DNA of 64,000 nucleotides, taken from the NCBI GenBank assembly GCA_027057345.1, contig JALUIX010000058.1, positions 10,564 through 74,563 on the forward strand. Direction: 5' to 3'. This stretch comes from Lysobacterales bacterium. Its GTDB lineage: Bacteria > Pseudomonadota > Gammaproteobacteria > Xanthomonadales > Marinicellaceae. The notes below the pieces were generated by a model. The model saw only the letters and a program-made list of their open reading frames with translations, had not been told where the DNA came from and did not search any database. This document shows, in pieces, positions 24,612-31,095 of this stretch (position 1 is its first letter; every line of letters starts with the position of its first letter). Position numbers and translations under genes: made by a program.

Positions 24612-24772
24612 GGAACCTCTGATTGAGTCTGGCGCGAGCAGATTGTTGTGAAAAATTGTTCAGTTCAAGGCGCAAACCGCACGTAATAGCCAGGCTATTG
24701 CGAAGGTTTGCAACACAGAAATGGACGATTTTACGCCGCAAGATGCCGTGTCACGATTCAATCAGAGGTTCC
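24612..24772 (-). mobile_element. MITE copy E (subfamily 1, 161 bp)
   Basis: Termini GGAACCTCTGATTGAGTC ... GATTCAATCAGAGGTTCC; the ends carry matching AC/GT variants. Flanks TCAG / TTAC are not a clean duplication. Confidence 0.85.
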
Positions 24773-25817
24773 TTACCGGCCCTGGCCGTCGCAGCGCTTC
24801 CAGCGACCAGCGTGGGTGGATATCAATGGCCCAACCGGTTTTGCGCTCGCCGGCCTGCAAGCGCAAGGCACCGGCCAGAGCGATCATGGCACCGTTATCT
24901 GTGCACCAGTCCAGCGGTGGAAAATACACCTGGCCGCCGTGTTGCTGCGTCATGGCCTGCAAACGCTGGCGCAAGGCGCTGTTGGCGCTGACGCCACCGG
25001 CCACTACCAGGCGCTTCAAACCGCTTTGCTTGATGGCCCGCTGACATTTTCGCACCAACGTGTCCACCACCGCTTCCTGAAACCCGGCCGCAATATCGGC
25101 CTTGAGTTGTTCCCGTTCGGCCTCACTGGTGGCAGCTTGCCGGCTTTTCTCCCAGGTCACGCGGGTAAAGGTCTTGAGACCGGAAAAGCTCATGTCCAGT
25201 CCCGGGCGATTTATCATGGGGCGCGGAAAAGCAAACCGGCCGGAGTCGCCTTTTTTGGCCAGCTCGGCCAGGGCCTTGCCACCCGGATAGGGCAGTCCCA
25301 GCAATTTGGCCGTTTTGTCAAAAGCCTCACCGGCGGCGTCATCCAGCGTGTCACCCAGAATGCGGTAATCACCCAGTTCGCGCACGGCCACCAACAGGCT
25401 GTGGCCACCGGAAACCAGTAGGCTGAGAAACGGGAATGGTGGCGGGTCATCGCCCAGCAAAGGCGCCAGCAAATGGCCTTCCATGTGATGCACTTCCACG
25501 GCTGGAATGTCCAACGCCCAAGCCAGACTCTGGCCCAGGCTGGCCCCCACCAGCAAGGCCCCGGCCAGGCCCGGCCCGGCTGTCCAGGCAATGCCGTCCA
25601 GGTCATTCAGGCTCAAGTCGGCCTGTTTCAAGGTGGCCTGTATCAGTGGCACCGCCTTGCGCACGTGATCGCGCGATGCCAGCTCCGGCACCACACCGCC
25701 ATGGCGGGCGTGCAAGGCAATCTGTGAATGCAGTTGCTCGGCCAAGAGGCCGTTTTCGGTGTCATAAATGGCGATGCCTGTTTCGTCACAGGATGACTCG
25801 ATGCCGAGGACTTTCAT
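24762..25817 (-). CDS. tsaD: tRNA N6-adenosine threonylcarbamoyltransferase TsaD
   Basis: [23 protein letters not shown] and VSGGHS blocks. The last codons (NL) plus TGA lie inside MITE copy E. Confidence 0.95.
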
Positions 25818-27013
25818 GTCGATTTCCCGCTGGATTGGCCAGATTCATGGCGCGCCGGCGCCGATTTCAAGGCTGGATTTTTCTCACCATCGGCCTCCAC
25901 AGAGCGGAGCTGGCAGTGCAGGCGGCTGTTTTTCAGTCGACCGGCCATGGCCGGGCTGATTTCACACCGGCCGTCCTCGCCCAGCAGCAAGACGCTGTCC
26001 AGCCCCAGCTGCTGCGCCACGCGCGGCCACCGCTGCCAACCGGCCACAATCATAGCGGTGGCTGCTGCGTCAGCCAGGGTGCCATCATCTGCGATCACCG
26101 TGGCGGAAACCACATCCGGCACCGGCCAGCCTGTTGCCGGATCGAGGATGTGCGCATAGCGTGTACCGTCATAGCGGGTGTAACGCTGATAATTGCCGGA
26201 GGTAAAAATGGCTTCATGGCCACGGCTTTCGATTACCGCCAGAATGTCTCCGGGCCAGTCGGCGCCCGGGGCGCGAATGGCCACCCGCCACGGCGCCACC
26301 CCTTTCTGGCCATTGACCAGCACATCGCCACCGGCATTGATAATCACGTCCGCAAACCCCGCCTGCTGCAGCATTTTTGCCACCACATCAGTGGCATAAC
26401 CCTTGGCCACCCCGCCAAAATCCAGCCAGATTCGTGGGTTGCTGCTCCACAACTGCACGCCTTCACTTTTCTTGGTCAGGTGCAGATCGGCCATGGATGG
26501 CCGCTGTTGCAGCCACTCATCAATAGCGGTGGCATCAGGTGGCGGTGTGTGCAAGGGGAACTCATCGGCGTGAAACCCCCACAGGTGCACCAGTTCGCCA
26601 ATGGCCGGGTCAAAAGCGCCCTCGCTGGTCTGGCTCAAGGCCTTGACCCGCTGCAAAAAACGCGCTTCTTCGTCACTCAGCGTAATGCGTTGGCCATGAC
26701 GCAAAGCCGCATTGATGGCCTGCAAGCGACCCGGCTTCCAGGCATGCCACTGATGGTGCATGGCGTTCAGTTTTTCTTCCACCTTCAACAAGGCGTTTTC
26801 CAGTGCCGGCTGCTTTTCTTTCGGCGCCCAAACCAGGACATCCAGCACGGTGCCAAACACATAATACGACTGCTTGTGAAGCACCGATGGCGACTGATTG
26901 TTCCCTTCAGCGGCCGGCTGGGAGTCCGCGCAGGCGGTGAGCAGACCCAGCGCCATAACGCAGGCAATCCCCACCCGGATAGTTTCATTATTGATAATCG
27001 TTCTCATTTGCAT
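25814..27013 (-). CDS. apbE: FAD:protein FMN transferase (ApbE family lipoprotein)
   Basis: Lipobox LLTAC; [29 protein letters not shown] and [14 protein letters not shown] overlap with tsaD. Confidence 0.9.
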
Positions 27014-27084
27014 TAGAATCCGGTTTCCGGCCCAAGCAGGCTATCTCTCATCACTCTTTTTCATCACGGAATTTAGAGGTCACC

Positions 27085-28347
27085 ATGATATCACCACTCC
27101 CAAACCGAATATCCCGTTCCCTTGCGTTGACGTGGCTGTTTTGCATCGTTTCCTTTCAGGCCCTGGCGCAAACAGGATCAGGCAGTCCCAAGTCCGAAGA
27201 TGTTCCCGACAGCACGCGCCTGTGGCAGATCGTTCAGCAACAACAGCACACTATTGAGACGTTGCAAAAAGAGCTGAGGGAGCTAAAAAACCGCCTCGAC
27301 AGCACCGCCAAACACGTAGAGGCGCAAGAGGATAATCTGCAACAAATGGCCGAAGCCGTAGAAGACACCGTACCTGCGGCGGCACAAACCAGCCTGGGTG
27401 GTTACGGCGAGCTGCACTATAACAACACTGACAGTGGCAATAAAGTGGATTTTCATCGCTTTGTGCTGTTTATCGGGCATGATTTCTCCGACCAAACACG
27501 TTTCTATTCCGAACTGGAAGTGGAGCACGCTCTGTCCGGTGAAGGAAAGCCCGGAGCAATGGAGCTGGAACAGGCTTTTATCGGGCACCGCTTTAACGAT
27601 TCATTTACCGCTAAGGCCGGTTTAATGTTGATGCCAGTGGGTATACTCAATGAAACCCATGAACCCGATACCTTCTTTGGTGTTGAACGCAACCCGGTGG
27701 AAAAAAACATTCTGCCCACCACGTGGTGGGAAGCCGGGTTGGCCGGTCGCTGGAAAATCTCACAACGCCTCAGCGCGGATATCATGATATCCAGCGGGCT
27801 CAATGTGCCAACCAGTGGCTCCAAGGCATTTCTTATTCGTTCCGGTCGCCAAAGCGTGGCCAAGGCCACGGCCAATGACGGCGCCCTGACGGCCCGAATC
27901 CAGTTTCTACCCGCACCGGGCCTGCAGTTATCGGCCCTTGTCCATCAGCAACAGGACATAACCCAGGGTGAACTGGGTATAGGCGCCACCTTGCTGGAGG
28001 CCGATGCCCAATACCGCAACGGCCCGTTTGGCCTGAAGGCGTTGGTGGCCCGCTGGAACCTGGACGACAAAGTCAAGGCGCTGGCACCTGGCCGGGAACA
28101 ACAAAGCGGCTATTACATCGAGCCTTCATGGCGATTTGGTGATCGGCAAAACATTGGCTTGTTTGCCCGTTATGCAATGTGGGACAACAACGCGGGTGAT
28201 GACCGTGCAGACACGTCGATCAAACAACTCAATATTGGTGCCAACTACTGGCTGCACCCGCAAGTGGTTTTCAAGATGGATTACCAGAACCAGTCTGGCG
28301 CGGCCGATGATGACGGATTCAACCTGGGCGTGGGGTATTCTTTTTGA
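27085..28347 (+). CDS. outer-membrane beta-barrel porin-like protein
   Basis: Signal peptide ending FQALAQ, a short coiled-coil, alternating beta-strand pattern (GGYGELHYNN, NIGANYWLHPQVVFKMDY), and C-terminal GVGYSF ending in Phe. Confidence 0.7.
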   Translation: MISPLPNRISRSLALTWLFCIVSFQALAQTGSGSPKSEDVPDSTRLWQIVQQQQHTIETLQKELRELKNRLDSTAKHVEAQEDNLQQMAEAVEDTVPAAAQTSLGGYGELHYNNTDSGNKVDFHRFVLFIGHDFSDQTRFYSELEVEHALSGEGKPGAMELEQAFIGHRFNDSFTAKAGLMLMPVGILNETHEPDTFFGVERNPVEKNILPTTWWEAGLAGRWKISQRLSADIMISSGLNVPTSGSKAFLIRSGRQSVAKATANDGALTARIQFLPAPGLQLSALVHQQQDITQGELGIGATLLEADAQYRNGPFGLKALVARWNLDDKVKALAPGREQQSGYYIEPSWRFGDRQNIGLFARYAMWDNNAGDDRADTSIKQLNIGANYWLHPQVVFKMDYQNQSGAADDDGFNLGVGYSF

Positions 28348-28949
28348 TGAAAAATGCTTTCTGCCCTGCCCTGCCAATGGCCATGATGCGTCTTGATAGT
28401 CTCAAGGCCCGGTTTTTGATCGGGCTTTTGGGCTGTCTGTTTGTTTTGCTCGTCAGCACCCCGGCTCAGGCAGCCATGCCTGATGAGTTTCTGCACTTTC
28501 TGCAGGAGTCCTTTGGCAGCGACAGGCCCCGGGTACAACGGCTGTGGCTAAACGAGCAACAAAGGAACGAAGCCGGAAAACTGTTACAAAGGCCCGTTCG
28601 AACACGATCGCTACGCTATTGGGGCGATGCCAGCCACAGCGTCTGGCTGCTGAACGAAATCGGCAAGGAGCGCCCCATTACCACCGCCATTGAAATCCGC
28701 AACGGCCGGGTCAAGCGTGTGCGCGTTATCACTTACCGGGAATCTCGCGGTGGTGAAGTGCAAGCGGACTGGTTCCTGAATCAGTTTCGAGGCCTGGAAA
28801 GAGAACACCTGGGCGCCCTGCACAAAACCATTGACAGCATCAGCGGCGCCACCTTGTCTGTCAATGCCCTTAAAAAACAGGTGTCGCTGGCCCTGCTGGC
28901 TGCCGACTGGCTGAAGCAAAAGGCTGCGAAACTGGAAAAACAACCGTGA
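28347..28949 (+). CDS. periplasmic FMN-binding-domain protein (predicted ApbE substrate)
   Basis: Signal peptide ...STPAQA. FMN_bind-like C-terminus with flavinylation motif DSISGATLS (Thr codon 28851-28853). ATG overlaps the porin stop (TGATG). Confidence 0.75.
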   Translation: MKNAFCPALPMAMMRLDSLKARFLIGLLGCLFVLLVSTPAQAAMPDEFLHFLQESFGSDRPRVQRLWLNEQQRNEAGKLLQRPVRTRSLRYWGDASHSVWLLNEIGKERPITTAIEIRNGRVKRVRVITYRESRGGEVQADWFLNQFRGLEREHLGALHKTIDSISGATLSVNALKKQVSLALLAADWLKQKAAKLEKQP

Positions 28950-29740
28950 ACCCGCGCTGGATTCGCAAAACCCACCGTTGGCTGGGCGTTATTGCCGCCT
29001 TTTGGTTAGTCCTGCTGGCAGTAAGCGGCGTGCTGTTGCAGCACGCCGAAGACTGGGGGCTGGACAAAAAGCCGGTCCGCTCCGCCTGGTTATTGTCGTT
29101 GCATGGCCTGACACCCACGACTTGGGCTTATGACCCGGTGTCAGGCTCCGAAAGCGACCCGGTGAAAATACAGCAATTCGGCCAGCGCATCTTCCGGCTA
29201 CCGGTAGGCAACCGGCAGTGGCTTGACCTGCCTGAGCAACCACTGGCGGTGTTTTCTGCCGGAAAGAGCCCGGACAACCAGCACCTGTGGCTGGTTTTCT
29301 CCAGCGAAATCTGGCAACTGAGACCGACCGGTGAATTGATAAATCAATGGGACGCGTTCGATGGCCTGCCAACACCCATTGAGTCCATCAGTCTGGATAA
29401 CAACGCCCTGATACTCGACACGTCGGATGGCTCGTTCGCTTTCGACCTGGTCACAGGATATCTGGCTGAAGCGCCTCTGGCTGCCGACCCCAGCCACAAT
29501 CGCCATGCATCACGGCCACCGGCCCCGAAAAAATTTCCCGGAGCACTCGTCAATAGCCACATCAGCCAGAATCTGCTGAGCTGGCAGAAAGTGATTTTTT
29601 CCTGGCACGCGGGTTTACTGGGCACCTGGTGGCTGAACGACCTGGCCGCCGCCGCACTGGTTTTTCTGTCCATCAGTGGGTTCTGGCTGTTTATGCGCAG
29701 AAACCGGAATTCGCGCAACCCCCGGAAAAACAGGGGGTGA
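28946..29740 (+). CDS. PepSY-associated TM helix (PepSY-like) membrane protein
   Basis: N-terminus RKTHRWLGVIAAFWLVLLAVSGVLLQH and C-terminal TM with SWHAGLLGTWW. GTG start overlaps the upstream stop (GTGA). Confidence 0.7.
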   Translation: MNPRWIRKTHRWLGVIAAFWLVLLAVSGVLLQHAEDWGLDKKPVRSAWLLSLHGLTPTTWAYDPVSGSESDPVKIQQFGQRIFRLPVGNRQWLDLPEQPLAVFSAGKSPDNQHLWLVFSSEIWQLRPTGELINQWDAFDGLPTPIESISLDNNALILDTSDGSFAFDLVTGYLAEAPLAADPSHNRHASRPPAPKKFPGALVNSHISQNLLSWQKVIFSWHAGLLGTWWLNDLAAAALVFLSISGFWLFMRRNRNSRNPRKNRG

Positions 29741-30022
29741 TAAGCCGCTATTGCCCTTAAGCACTGGTTGCAACACGGCAAGCCGCCTTTCCGCAGAGGC
29801 AACCAGGGAAGCTCTGATGACAACAGCTCTATTTATTACCCCTGCCTTTTCAGCCAACTGGTGCGAACTACTGGTTATGCTGTTCAAGCGGCATAAAAAC
29901 ATCAAAGCCATTGGCGAAAACCTGGAGCAATCTTGATCTGTGACAGACTCGGCTGCTTGATTTATTGCCGTTAGCCGCCATAATCTAGCGGTTAACCTTT
30001 ACTTCAGCCTGAGGAGTCCCGC

Positions 30023-30325
30023 ATGAGCTTGAAAGACACTTTTAACCTGAAAATTAAAACTGACATCCACAAGGTTTCCATGCTTTTCTGGATCTTGTTG
30101 ATTTTTATTGTGGCCCGTTCTGCCTGGGTGTTGTTTAACCACGCCTTTGATGTGCCACTGACTGATCCCTACTTCCCATGGGAAAACCTGTTTCTCACCA
30201 TAACGGCCCTGGCCATTGCCGTGCTGGCGCTCAAAGGCTGGTTCGAAACGTTCAAGGTGCTGTACGAAATCAACGACAACCTGGAAGCCATCCGCGAACA
30301 GGAAACAAACAAAACCACCCAATAA
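30023..30325 (+). CDS. small two-TM membrane protein, unknown function
   Basis: 100 aa with two hydrophobic helices. GAGGAG lies 6 nt upstream of the ATG. Followed by a clean terminator. Confidence 0.55.
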   Translation: MSLKDTFNLKIKTDIHKVSMLFWILLIFIVARSAWVLFNHAFDVPLTDPYFPWENLFLTITALAIAVLALKGWFETFKVLYEINDNLEAIREQETNKTTQ

Positions 30326-30349
30326 GCTTTAATGAATCCATCGAAATTC

Positions 30350-30373
30350 AACCCGGCTCAAGCCGGGTTTTTT
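30350..30373 (+). terminator. rho-independent terminator
   Basis: AACCCGGC-TCAA-GCCGGGTT followed by a T run. Confidence 0.8.
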
Positions 30374-30432
30374 ATGGATTCAGGGTAGGAATCGCCAAGC
30401 ACATTCGGTAAGCTCTATCCTGTTTTACTACT

Positions 30433-31095
30433 ATGGCCAAAGGCACCTTTATTGTGAAAACCCTTAAGCACCTGCTCGAAAAAAACCGCCAGTGGGCGGA
30501 CGCCATCCGGCGCCAGCAGCCGGATTTTTTCGAGCAGCTTTCGCGCCAGCAAAACCCGGATTACCTATGGATTGGCTGCTCTGACAGCCGGGTGCCCGCC
30601 AATCAGATTGTGGGCGTGGCTCCGGGGGAAATTTTTGTGCACCGTAACATTGCCAACGCCGTGGTGCACACCGACCTGAATTGCCTGTCCGTGATCCAAT
30701 ACGCGGTGGAGGTGCTGGGCATCAGGCACATCATTGTGTGCGGCCACTATGGCTGTGGCGGCATTCGCGCCGCCATGGAAAACCACCAACACGGCCTGAT
30801 TGACAACTGGTTACTGCACATCAAGGACACTCAGCGCTTTCACGCTGCCGAGCTGGAGCCGCTGGACGCAGAAAAGCGCTTCGGGCGCCTGTGCGAACTG
30901 AACGTCATTGAACAGGTCAAGAACGTGGCCCACAGCACCATCGTGCAAAATGCCTGGAATCGGCAGCGGACGGTGAACGTGCATGGCTGGATCTACGATC
31001 TGGGCAATGGCCTGATTTCCGACCTGGGCTGTGGTGTTTCCAACCAGGAAGAATTGCAAGCACTGGATGCGGACTCAACGGTTAAGCCGGGCTGA
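30433..31095 (+). CDS. can: beta-class carbonic anhydrase
   Basis: GCSDSRVP and VCGHYGCGG zinc-ligand contexts. Confidence 0.92.

Follow-up and report, generated by a model that had tools for sequence, protein, structure and literature searches.

The locus described here lies in a 64,000-nucleotide stretch of DNA, referred to as the window, from a Lysobacterales bacterium (GenBank assembly GCA_027057345.1, contig JALUIX010000058.1, positions 10,564 to 74,563 of the forward strand). It consists of apbE on the minus strand, encoding a flavin transferase, and a divergent three-gene cassette on the plus strand, encoding a porin, a protein with a flavin mononucleotide (FMN)-binding FMN_bind domain, and a PepSY_TM-like membrane protein. 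Open reading frames (ORFs) were taken from a six-frame listing, and the gene junctions and intergenic spacer were read directly in the sequence. The spacer between apbE and the porin gene measures 71 bp (27014-27084). Within the cassette, a single A belongs to both the TGA stop of the porin gene and the ATG start of the FMN_bind gene (TGATG, 28345-28349). At the next junction, the GTG start of the membrane protein gene is overlapped by the TGA stop of the FMN_bind gene (GTGA, 28946-28949). The apbE, FMN_bind, and PepSY_TM-like genes all fall inside 4 kb, and the flanks hold the housekeeping genes tsaD, birA, can, and def. Coordinates are collected in Table 1.

Table 1. Genes, regulatory sites, and predicted functional residues of the locus, in window coordinates.
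Feature	Position	Strand	Basis and remarks
apbE	25814-27013	minus	ORF listing and Pfam ApbE
Fur box	26987-27011		two overlapping 19-mers, ATTATTGATAATCGTTCTC and GCAAATGAGAACGATTATC; covers the first apbE codons and the porin promoter
Sigma-70-like promoter, TTGATA-17 bp-TAGAAT	26991-27019	plus	10 of 12 consensus matches
Porin gene, 420 amino acids	27085-28347	plus	ORF listing; translation ends ...GVGYSF
FMN_bind gene, 200/201 amino acids	28347 (or 28344)-28949	plus	ORF listing and Pfam
Predicted flavinylation motif D163-S-I-S-G-A-T169 (DSISGAT)	28833-28853	plus	alignment of relatives
PepSY_TM-like membrane protein gene, 264 amino acids	28946-29740	plus	ORF listing and Pfam
H10 codon	28973-28975	plus	HR motif, cytoplasmic end of first transmembrane helix; predicted haem ligand; aligns with FoxB His9
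H33 codon	29042-29044	plus	periplasmic end of first transmembrane helix; conserved in at least 90% of sequences
H221 codon	29606-29608	plus	H-x-G before second transmembrane helix, periplasmic; predicted haem ligand; aligns with FoxB His339 in PIHGG

An earlier reading of the sequence alone (hereafter the sequence-only reading) had listed these four ORFs, both stop/start overlaps, the 71-bp spacer, and a set of protein motifs, and all of them were present on direct read. Its domain calls (ApbE, porin, FMN_bind, and PepSY_TM) were each confirmed by Pfam hidden Markov model search. So were its descriptions of the first operon product as an outer-membrane beta-barrel ending in Phe and of the second as a secreted FMN_bind protein with an ApbE acceptor motif, for which the evidence is given below. 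None of the three operon proteins has a specific NCBIfam model, and an Rfam scan of positions 25500-30500 matched no riboswitch or small RNA.

To determine how widely the arrangement is kept, we fetched 82 loci, called their ORFs, and ran iterative searches of these with the four proteins of the window as queries. These loci span Gamma-, Alpha-, and Zetaproteobacteria and Verrucomicrobia, where the Gammaproteobacteria of GTDB include the classical Beta lineages. The order porin, FMN_bind, PepSY-like was found on one strand in 76 of the 82 loci, which bears out the expectation that the three genes co-occur outside this genome. Of the remaining six, three were cut by contig ends (with FMN_bind at the locus edge), two had no PepSY-like gene, and one (L017) was rearranged. 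In 35 of 75 loci, the start of the next gene overlaps the FMN_bind stop codon, and in 22 more the two are no more than 20 nucleotides apart. In close relatives (63-89% identity), the neighbourhood is retained in full, as are all overlaps.

As an unbiased test, a 401-genome sample of the phylum was searched twice, with the porin profile and with the FMN_bind profile. The porin profile matched 19 genomes, while 16 gave strong matches to the FMN_bind profile. In all 16, the FMN_bind match adjoined a porin match on the same contig, and each of six sample loci that were fetched held the complete triad. The gene arrangement is therefore conserved far beyond chance. A pattern scan with one genome per species identified the FMN_bind relative in at least 507 species. 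Carriers include Marinicella, Lysobacterales, Thiohalobacter, Woeseia, Methylococcales, Methylotenera, Methylophilaceae, and Thiobacillaceae, together with Parvibaculaceae, Kordiimonas, Robiginitomaculum, Zetaproteobacteria, Opitutales, and Puniceicoccaceae.

Clustering of all flanking ORFs in the loci revealed no further constant neighbour. The recurring ones were ApbE (19 loci), a UPF0093 HemJ-like protein (7), peroxiredoxin (6), and FeoB (5); LysR, AI-2E, and peroxiredoxin neighbour genes were lineage-specific. The UPF0093 (HemJ/CopD-like) gene occurs in L031, L032, L040, L054, L068, L074, and L085, in some of them directly upstream of the porin gene (e.g. L054). This proximity may reflect a lineage-specific link to haem synthesis.

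The second cassette protein matched Pfam FMN_bind (PF04205) with 33.2 bits (cut-off 22). A signal peptide is present, with a cleavage site read by eye after ...PAQA and before A. In the homologue alignment (A1), residues D163, I165, G167, A168, and T169 of the acceptor motif were invariant, as were the blocks EIGKE and YRESRGG(EV). Of 84 sequences taken from the loci, 80 carry the motif D-x-I-[ST]-G-A-T. Its final Thr, T169, is presumably the FMN attachment site, by analogy with flavinylation of NqrC and RnfG. Like those proteins, the window protein combines an FMN_bind domain with the [S/T]GAT motif that is flavinylated by ApbE. However, NqrC and RnfG are anchored subunits of a Na+/H+-pumping complex, whereas the window protein is soluble and secreted by way of a cleavable signal peptide. 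It scored only 20.7 bits against the RnfG family (cut-off 205), and the true RnfG of this genome is encoded separately, on C47. A total of 620 relatives were present in the protein collection, and the family profile found no significant relative among solved structures. These features make the secreted protein a predicted ApbE substrate that would carry covalently bound FMN (for ApbE flavinylation, see PMC8238504 and PMC12052999).

The third cassette protein matched Pfam PepSY_TM (PF03929) with 32.7 bits (cut-off 28.8), covering model positions 175-295 only, the second half of the model. A genome-wide search gave it 26.7 bits by itself, or 30.1 bits when neighbouring matches were included, and it was the only PepSY_TM gene in the genome. 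An AlphaFold2 monomer model built from an 82-sequence alignment had a mean predicted local distance difference test (pLDDT) score of 89.7. It shows two transmembrane (TM) helices (residues 3-32 and 228-256) with a short helix before the second, and thus fewer than four TM helices per chain. Since both termini are basic, they are predicted to be cytoplasmic (N-in first helix, basic tail). The intervening periplasmic domain (residues ~57-198) is beta-rich and beta-propeller-like by the model and Foldseek. The family profile matched 3va6, the sensor propeller of BT4673 with its two-component-regulator blades, at an E-value of 5e-6. This domain is poorly conserved across homologues.

In contrast to the periplasmic domain, both ends of the protein carry strongly conserved His residues. 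The motifs THRWLG, LLQH, and SWHAG hold H10, H33, and H221, of which H10 and H221 were invariant in 82 homologues. The family profile also matched FoxB (7abw, E-value 1.2e-5). The N-terminal WHRxxG aligns with FoxB residues 5-31 (TM1, containing H9), and the C-terminal LHSGRxFG...TM aligns with residues 333-377 (TM4, containing H339). Weaker profile matches fall on TM3 and TM2 of FoxB. A single-sequence search of the PDB gave nothing meaningful for this protein, and FoxB was reached by the family profile only. FoxB is a two-haem ferrisiderophore reductase with a crystal structure, in which a four-TM bundle binds two b-haems by way of conserved His residues at each membrane face (bioRxiv 10.1101/2021.01.28.428567; PMC13038864). 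Because both ends of the 264-residue protein align with this bundle, it appears to correspond to one FoxB repeat. With one H10 and one H221 per chain, a dimer would be needed to complete haem ligation, and a homodimer is predicted to recreate both bis-His sites.

The sequence-only reading had described a PepSY-like protein with His residues in its terminal helices. The PepSY_TM match and the conserved H10, H33, and H221 agree with this description, but Pfam found no PepSY (PF03413) domain, and the protein is instead a two-TM half of a FoxB-type protein. Alignment with FoxB, FpvG, FsrB, and HiuB matches the window protein to their HR motif, where TM1 begins, and to the H-G-G that precedes the last TM helix. 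FoxB itself combines four TM helices with two PepSY domains in a single chain and requires no flavoprotein. The window protein differs in having two TM helices, no PepSY domain, the additional conserved H33, and a flavoprotein partner. A word-index search recovered only 14 relatives; the family was recovered from gene neighbourhoods and by an exhaustive profile search, which gave 1294 cluster representatives (50% identity clusters) at E-values of 1e-30 or below. The best 150 of these 1294 are 235-364 residues long, nearly all under 300. On this sequence evidence, the window protein belongs to a large and distinct half-size family. Among the characterised PepSY_TM relatives, none has fewer than four TM helices (PMC13038864).

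The first cassette protein matched Pfam Porin_4 (36.4 bits) and, marginally, Porin_O_P (PF07396; 23.2 bits, cut-off 20.9). A signal peptide (cleaved between ALA and QT) and a C-terminal Phe are present. The AlphaFold2 model (mean pLDDT 83.7) shows a 16-strand barrel and, ahead of it at residues ~43-91, an N-terminal helix or coiled coil in the periplasm. Foldseek matched it to OmpC/OmpK36, OprP (2o4v), and DcaP (6eus), with E-values of about 1e-13 to 1e-15. A single-sequence PDB search gave nothing meaningful and no sequence-level match to a solved porin. The window protein thus has the 16-strand barrel of DcaP, OprP, and OmpC-type trimeric porins, and its N-terminal helix resembles that of DcaP.

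Identity across classes is 35-65%, which is unusually high for a porin. Residues invariant among 76 homologues include Y107, R125, E143, E147, E162, H192, and R202. The invariant Glu, His, and Arg residues sit on strands 1-4 and on the loop PVGILNETHEP-x-TF-x-GVERN. Invariant candidates for the lumen side are mostly Glu and His (E109, H111, D122, H124, E143, E147, E162, H192, and E193) with some Arg, their orientation being taken from strand alternation only. OprP is characterised by an Arg ladder and a Lys cluster. The conserved residues of the window porin appear Glu/His-rich by comparison, and its gene is a fixed part of a redox operon under putative Fur control.

Two further observations concern porin variants. 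A paralogous coiled-coil porin of 444 amino acids is encoded elsewhere in the genome (C26:299-3582; E-value 7.5e-28 to the cassette porin profile). It does not have the invariant Glu/His residues of the cassette porin, and its gene overlaps by 4 nucleotides the end of a gene for a 650-residue Ser/Thr-kinase-like protein. In one sampled family with genomes of ~2 Mb, represented by L092 (G005) and L093 (G237), the cassette porin is ~355 residues long and has no N-terminal coiled coil. In both loci, strong Fur boxes stand directly upstream of the porin gene and both cassette partners are unchanged. A strict requirement for the coiled coil was considered and rejected, as porins without it keep both partners. 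A porin that houses the flavoprotein, as in MtrAB, was likewise rejected, the barrel being 16-stranded and constricted.

The control region of the operon provided a connection to iron. Between apbE and the porin gene, TTGATA-17-TAGAAT is the sole promoter-like site on the plus strand, and the box for the iron repressor Fur overlaps its -35 hexamer and spacer. Using a weight matrix built from other loci only, we scanned the 2.45-Mb assembly of this genome. The two 19-mers at the operon promoter were the two best matches genome-wide (scores 25.9 and 23.6). The same motif lies 10 bp upstream of feoA-feoB on C4, among the next independent matches. The block TTATTGATAATC(A/G)TTCTCATTTGCATTAGAATCCGGTTT is kept in relatives at 59-89% protein identity, including those at 59-63%, where the surrounding sequence diverges. 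The sequence-only reading had proposed a link to iron without these boxes, and their presence strengthens it.

Beyond close relatives, the 300 nucleotides upstream of the porin start were scored against the classical Fur consensus in 73 loci. At least 13 of 19 consensus matches were found in 45 loci, nearly all at -40 to -130. This score was reached by ~8% of random windows and by 9% of composition-preserving shuffles. In four of the six independent sample loci, the best matrix match stood immediately upstream of the porin gene. Fur-type boxes were the only conserved regulatory signal. Moreover, the five loci in which FeoB directly adjoins the cassette represent several lineages, and FeoB is the only transporter that recurs there. 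FeoAB is the likely Fe(II) importer in this genome, as is FeoB in those five loci, and this assignment extends to them only.

Ranking third among the Fur-type sites of the genome, C95:20219 stands upstream of a gene for a His/Cys-rich protein of 194 residues with no Pfam match (C95:19511-20237). The N-terminal 17 residues of this protein (MDDFTPQDAVSRF...) are nearly the same as those that begin a shadow ORF inside tsaD (window 24721-25044). This likeness suggests a repeated element.

The ApbE protein, by family an FAD:protein FMN transferase, matched Pfam ApbE (PF02424) with 232.8 bits (E-value 6.8e-69) over model positions 1-262 of 266, and its lipobox LLTAC marks it as a lipoprotein. Against NCBIfam PRK10461 it scored 152.6 bits, under the equivalog cut-off of 498, which places it as a member of the family and not as an E. 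coli-type equivalog. The pairing of ApbE with the cassette proposed by the sequence-only reading held only in part. The divergent apbE is confirmed here, and ApbE is divergent upstream in the same way in 14 of the 19 loci where it adjoins the cassette. However, ApbE is not a constant neighbour across the 82 loci, and this genome encodes two ApbE proteins.

The second ApbE (309 residues, without an obvious signal peptide; C121:7684-10736) is encoded by a gene that overlaps that of a DUF3570 outer-membrane barrel (330 bits), with a TlpA-like redoxin gene nearby. This set corresponds to the other flavinylation-linked outer-membrane cluster of Meheust et al. An Rnf operon is located at C47:5932-10150 (RnfC/D/G/E-like ORFs), its RnfG containing QITGATIS, and a NosR-like FMN_bind protein at C97:1-843 is ended by the contig edge. 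Rnf and the NosR-like protein are further likely ApbE clients in the genome. Because of the second ApbE and these clients, dedication of the window ApbE to the cassette is probable but not provable. A SoxZ-like ORF on C56 suggests sulfur oxidation.

Additional features were observed on either side of the locus. The stop of apbE shares 4 nucleotides with the start of tsaD on the minus strand (ATGA, 25814-25817), which would couple apbE translationally to the essential t6A gene tsaD. This overlap is also present in the relatives L089, L090, and L091. On the other side, the cassette is separated from the carbonic anhydrase gene by a gene for a small protein of ~100 residues (30023-30325). Pfam and NCBIfam gave no match for this protein, and its position is kept in close relatives (L089:7032-7331 and L091:6899-7195).

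Comparison with published systems places the cassette as an apparently undescribed variant within a class that is already known. PepSY-like flavinylation clusters have been proposed to act as assimilatory iron reductases that pass electrons through the inner membrane (Meheust et al. 2021, eLife, PMC8238504). As in those clusters, a PepSY_TM-family gene lies beside an ApbE substrate and often ApbE (PMC8238504; Huang et al. 2024, PMC11334425), and some of the published clusters are Fur-repressed (PMC8238504; PMC11334425). Meheust et al. 2021 define such systems operationally by the presence of PF03929 or PF16357 in a gene cluster with FMN_bind or ApbE, and this definition covers the window locus.

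Published clusters mostly have a DUF2271 protein (with DUF4198) as the flavinylated partner, whereas the window has an FMN_bind protein. Their PepSY-like proteins are described as three-TM or NAD-binding, in contrast to a two-TM half unit with a propeller-like domain. Where an outer-membrane partner is named, it is TonB-type, in place of the dedicated porin found here. Neither PMC8238504 nor PMC11334425 mentions a porin. The supplementary tables of Meheust et al., as text, contain neither the porin Pfam accessions nor the carrier genera. The distinguishing features of the cassette are the dedicated Glu/His-rich porin, the FMN_bind substrate, the two-TM half-FoxB with its propeller-like domain, and the Fur box.

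A second parallel is provided by reductive iron uptake in cyanobacteria, where Fe(III) enters through porins, undergoes reduction at the inner membrane or within the periplasm, and is imported as Fe(II) by FeoB (PMC7676907). We propose the same logic for the cassette. In the cyanobacterial system, the proposed reductant is the respiratory oxidase ARTO, and no dedicated porin/flavoprotein/cytochrome operon is known there.

Our data suggest that the cassette is an iron-starvation-induced, Fur-repressed module for ferric reduction in the periplasm, a reading to which we assign a probability of about 0.55. In iron-replete cells, Fur would bind the promoter-overlapping box and keep the operon off. 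Under iron limitation, the three coupled genes would be expressed. The 264-residue protein would dimerise into a four-helix bundle with two b-haems, one ligated by the two H10 residues on the cytoplasmic side and the other by the two H221 residues on the periplasmic side, and this bundle would carry electrons across the inner membrane. The FMN_bind protein would be covalently flavinylated at T169 by the neighbouring lipoprotein ApbE and would take up these electrons in the periplasm. The porin, with invariant Glu, His, and Arg in its barrel wall and constriction loop, would admit a substrate in oxidised form, for which Fe(III), inorganic or weakly chelated, is the most likely candidate. The flavoprotein would perform the final reduction to Fe(II), and an inner-membrane ferrous importer would take up the product; here this would be feoAB, which has the same Fur box.

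Several observations weigh against this reading. Two of the six independent sample loci had no Fur-type box, and the alphaproteobacterial sites were weaker. FeoB was not enriched genome-wide in the cassette-bearing genomes of the 401-genome sample: a clear FeoB was found in ~5 of 16, and several of those without it are 100% complete. This genome also encodes 8-10 TonB-dependent receptors, and the cassette is therefore not its only iron route. Selectivity of the porin for cations or metal is only suggested, since its conserved residues mix Glu, His, and Arg. Finally, our literature searches returned no description of the cassette.

The lack of genome-wide FeoB co-occurrence would also fit an iron-sparing role, in which the flavoprotein replaces an iron-rich carrier (the logic of flavodoxin), or reduction of a non-iron substrate such as Cu(II), an organic oxidant, or a peroxide-type stressor. 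The poorly conserved periplasmic domain of the membrane partner points the same way, as does the peroxiredoxin gene that neighbours the cassette in six loci. PepSY_TM proteins are moreover not restricted to iron, with CrpH linked to copper (PMC13038864). We regard these options as unlikely, given that Fur-type boxes are the sole conserved regulatory signal, that their motif is common to feoAB in this genome, and that no adjacent transporter other than FeoB recurs. For a carrier swap in particular, the dedicated and highly conserved porin argues instead for an imported small substrate. The same porin conservation, taken with the strict synteny, the tight coupling, and the DcaP-like N-terminal helix of ~50 residues, could indicate that the three proteins form a physically coupled device spanning the envelope. 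The coiled coil of a trimeric porin would then dock the flavoprotein and the beta-propeller, with reduction occurring at the porin or gated by it, and the whole would act as a TonB-independent, redox-driven uptake machine or as an extracellular electron conduit. An envelope-spanning redox or uptake device was also what the sequence-only reading had suggested. Physical coupling seems improbable for a 16-strand barrel whose L3-type constriction cannot house a protein of ~17 kDa, and L092 and L093 retain both partners beside porins that have no coiled coil. A bolder combination, about which we are similarly doubtful, would join porin, flavoprotein, and half-FoxB dimer into one TonB-independent machine in which reduction of iron at the Glu/His constriction pulls iron across the outer membrane. 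Import through the outer membrane would then draw its energy from electron transfer instead of TonB and the proton-motive force. Such a machine would give marine, sediment, and methylotrophic bacteria a widespread route for non-siderophore iron, and in the half-size protein one would see the FoxB fold in its ancestral, homodimeric form.

Electron flow in the opposite direction, with periplasmic Fe(II) or another porin-admitted reductant being oxidised and electrons fed inward, would suit the presence of the cassette in a Zetaproteobacteria metagenome-assembled genome, in those of Thiobacillaceae and Acidiferrobacterales, and in lineages named as sulfur oxidisers. We consider this very unlikely. 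An Fe(II)-oxidation pathway would need regulation opposite to Fur-mediated repression by iron, and the cassette occurs equally in heterotrophs and methylotrophs (Marinicella, Methylotenera, and Parvibaculaceae). The characterised PepSY_TM relatives cited above, FoxB and related ferrisiderophore reductases, are also reductases (PMC13038864). Least plausible is a coincidence of neighbours, with a generic anion or phosphate porin under its own regulation beside an FMN_bind and PepSY-like pair that works alone. The marginal Porin_O_P match is the kind of similarity such an account would draw on, but the synteny data effectively refute it: every strong FMN_bind match in the 401-genome sample adjoins a porin. 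Overlapping stop/start codons and the absence of the invariant cassette residues from the C26 paralogue also argue against it. The sequence-only reading had itself raised the possibility of a generic, independently regulated phosphate porin; the barrel proved to be encoded first behind the Fur-box promoter and appears to have no OprP-like pattern of conserved residues.

Outside the cyanobacteria, little is understood of how Gram-negative bacteria take up inorganic or weakly complexed iron when neither siderophores nor TonB-dependent receptors are involved. If porin entry and periplasmic reduction under Fur control prove to be the function of the cassette, they would give iron biology a defined and genetically tractable pathway, and cultured carriers include Marinicella and Methylotenera. 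The same result would provide a physiological role for a large group of orphan ApbE substrates and a specific function for an otherwise anonymous, highly conserved porin family. It would also mean that the two-haem fold of FoxB can be built from a two-TM half unit.

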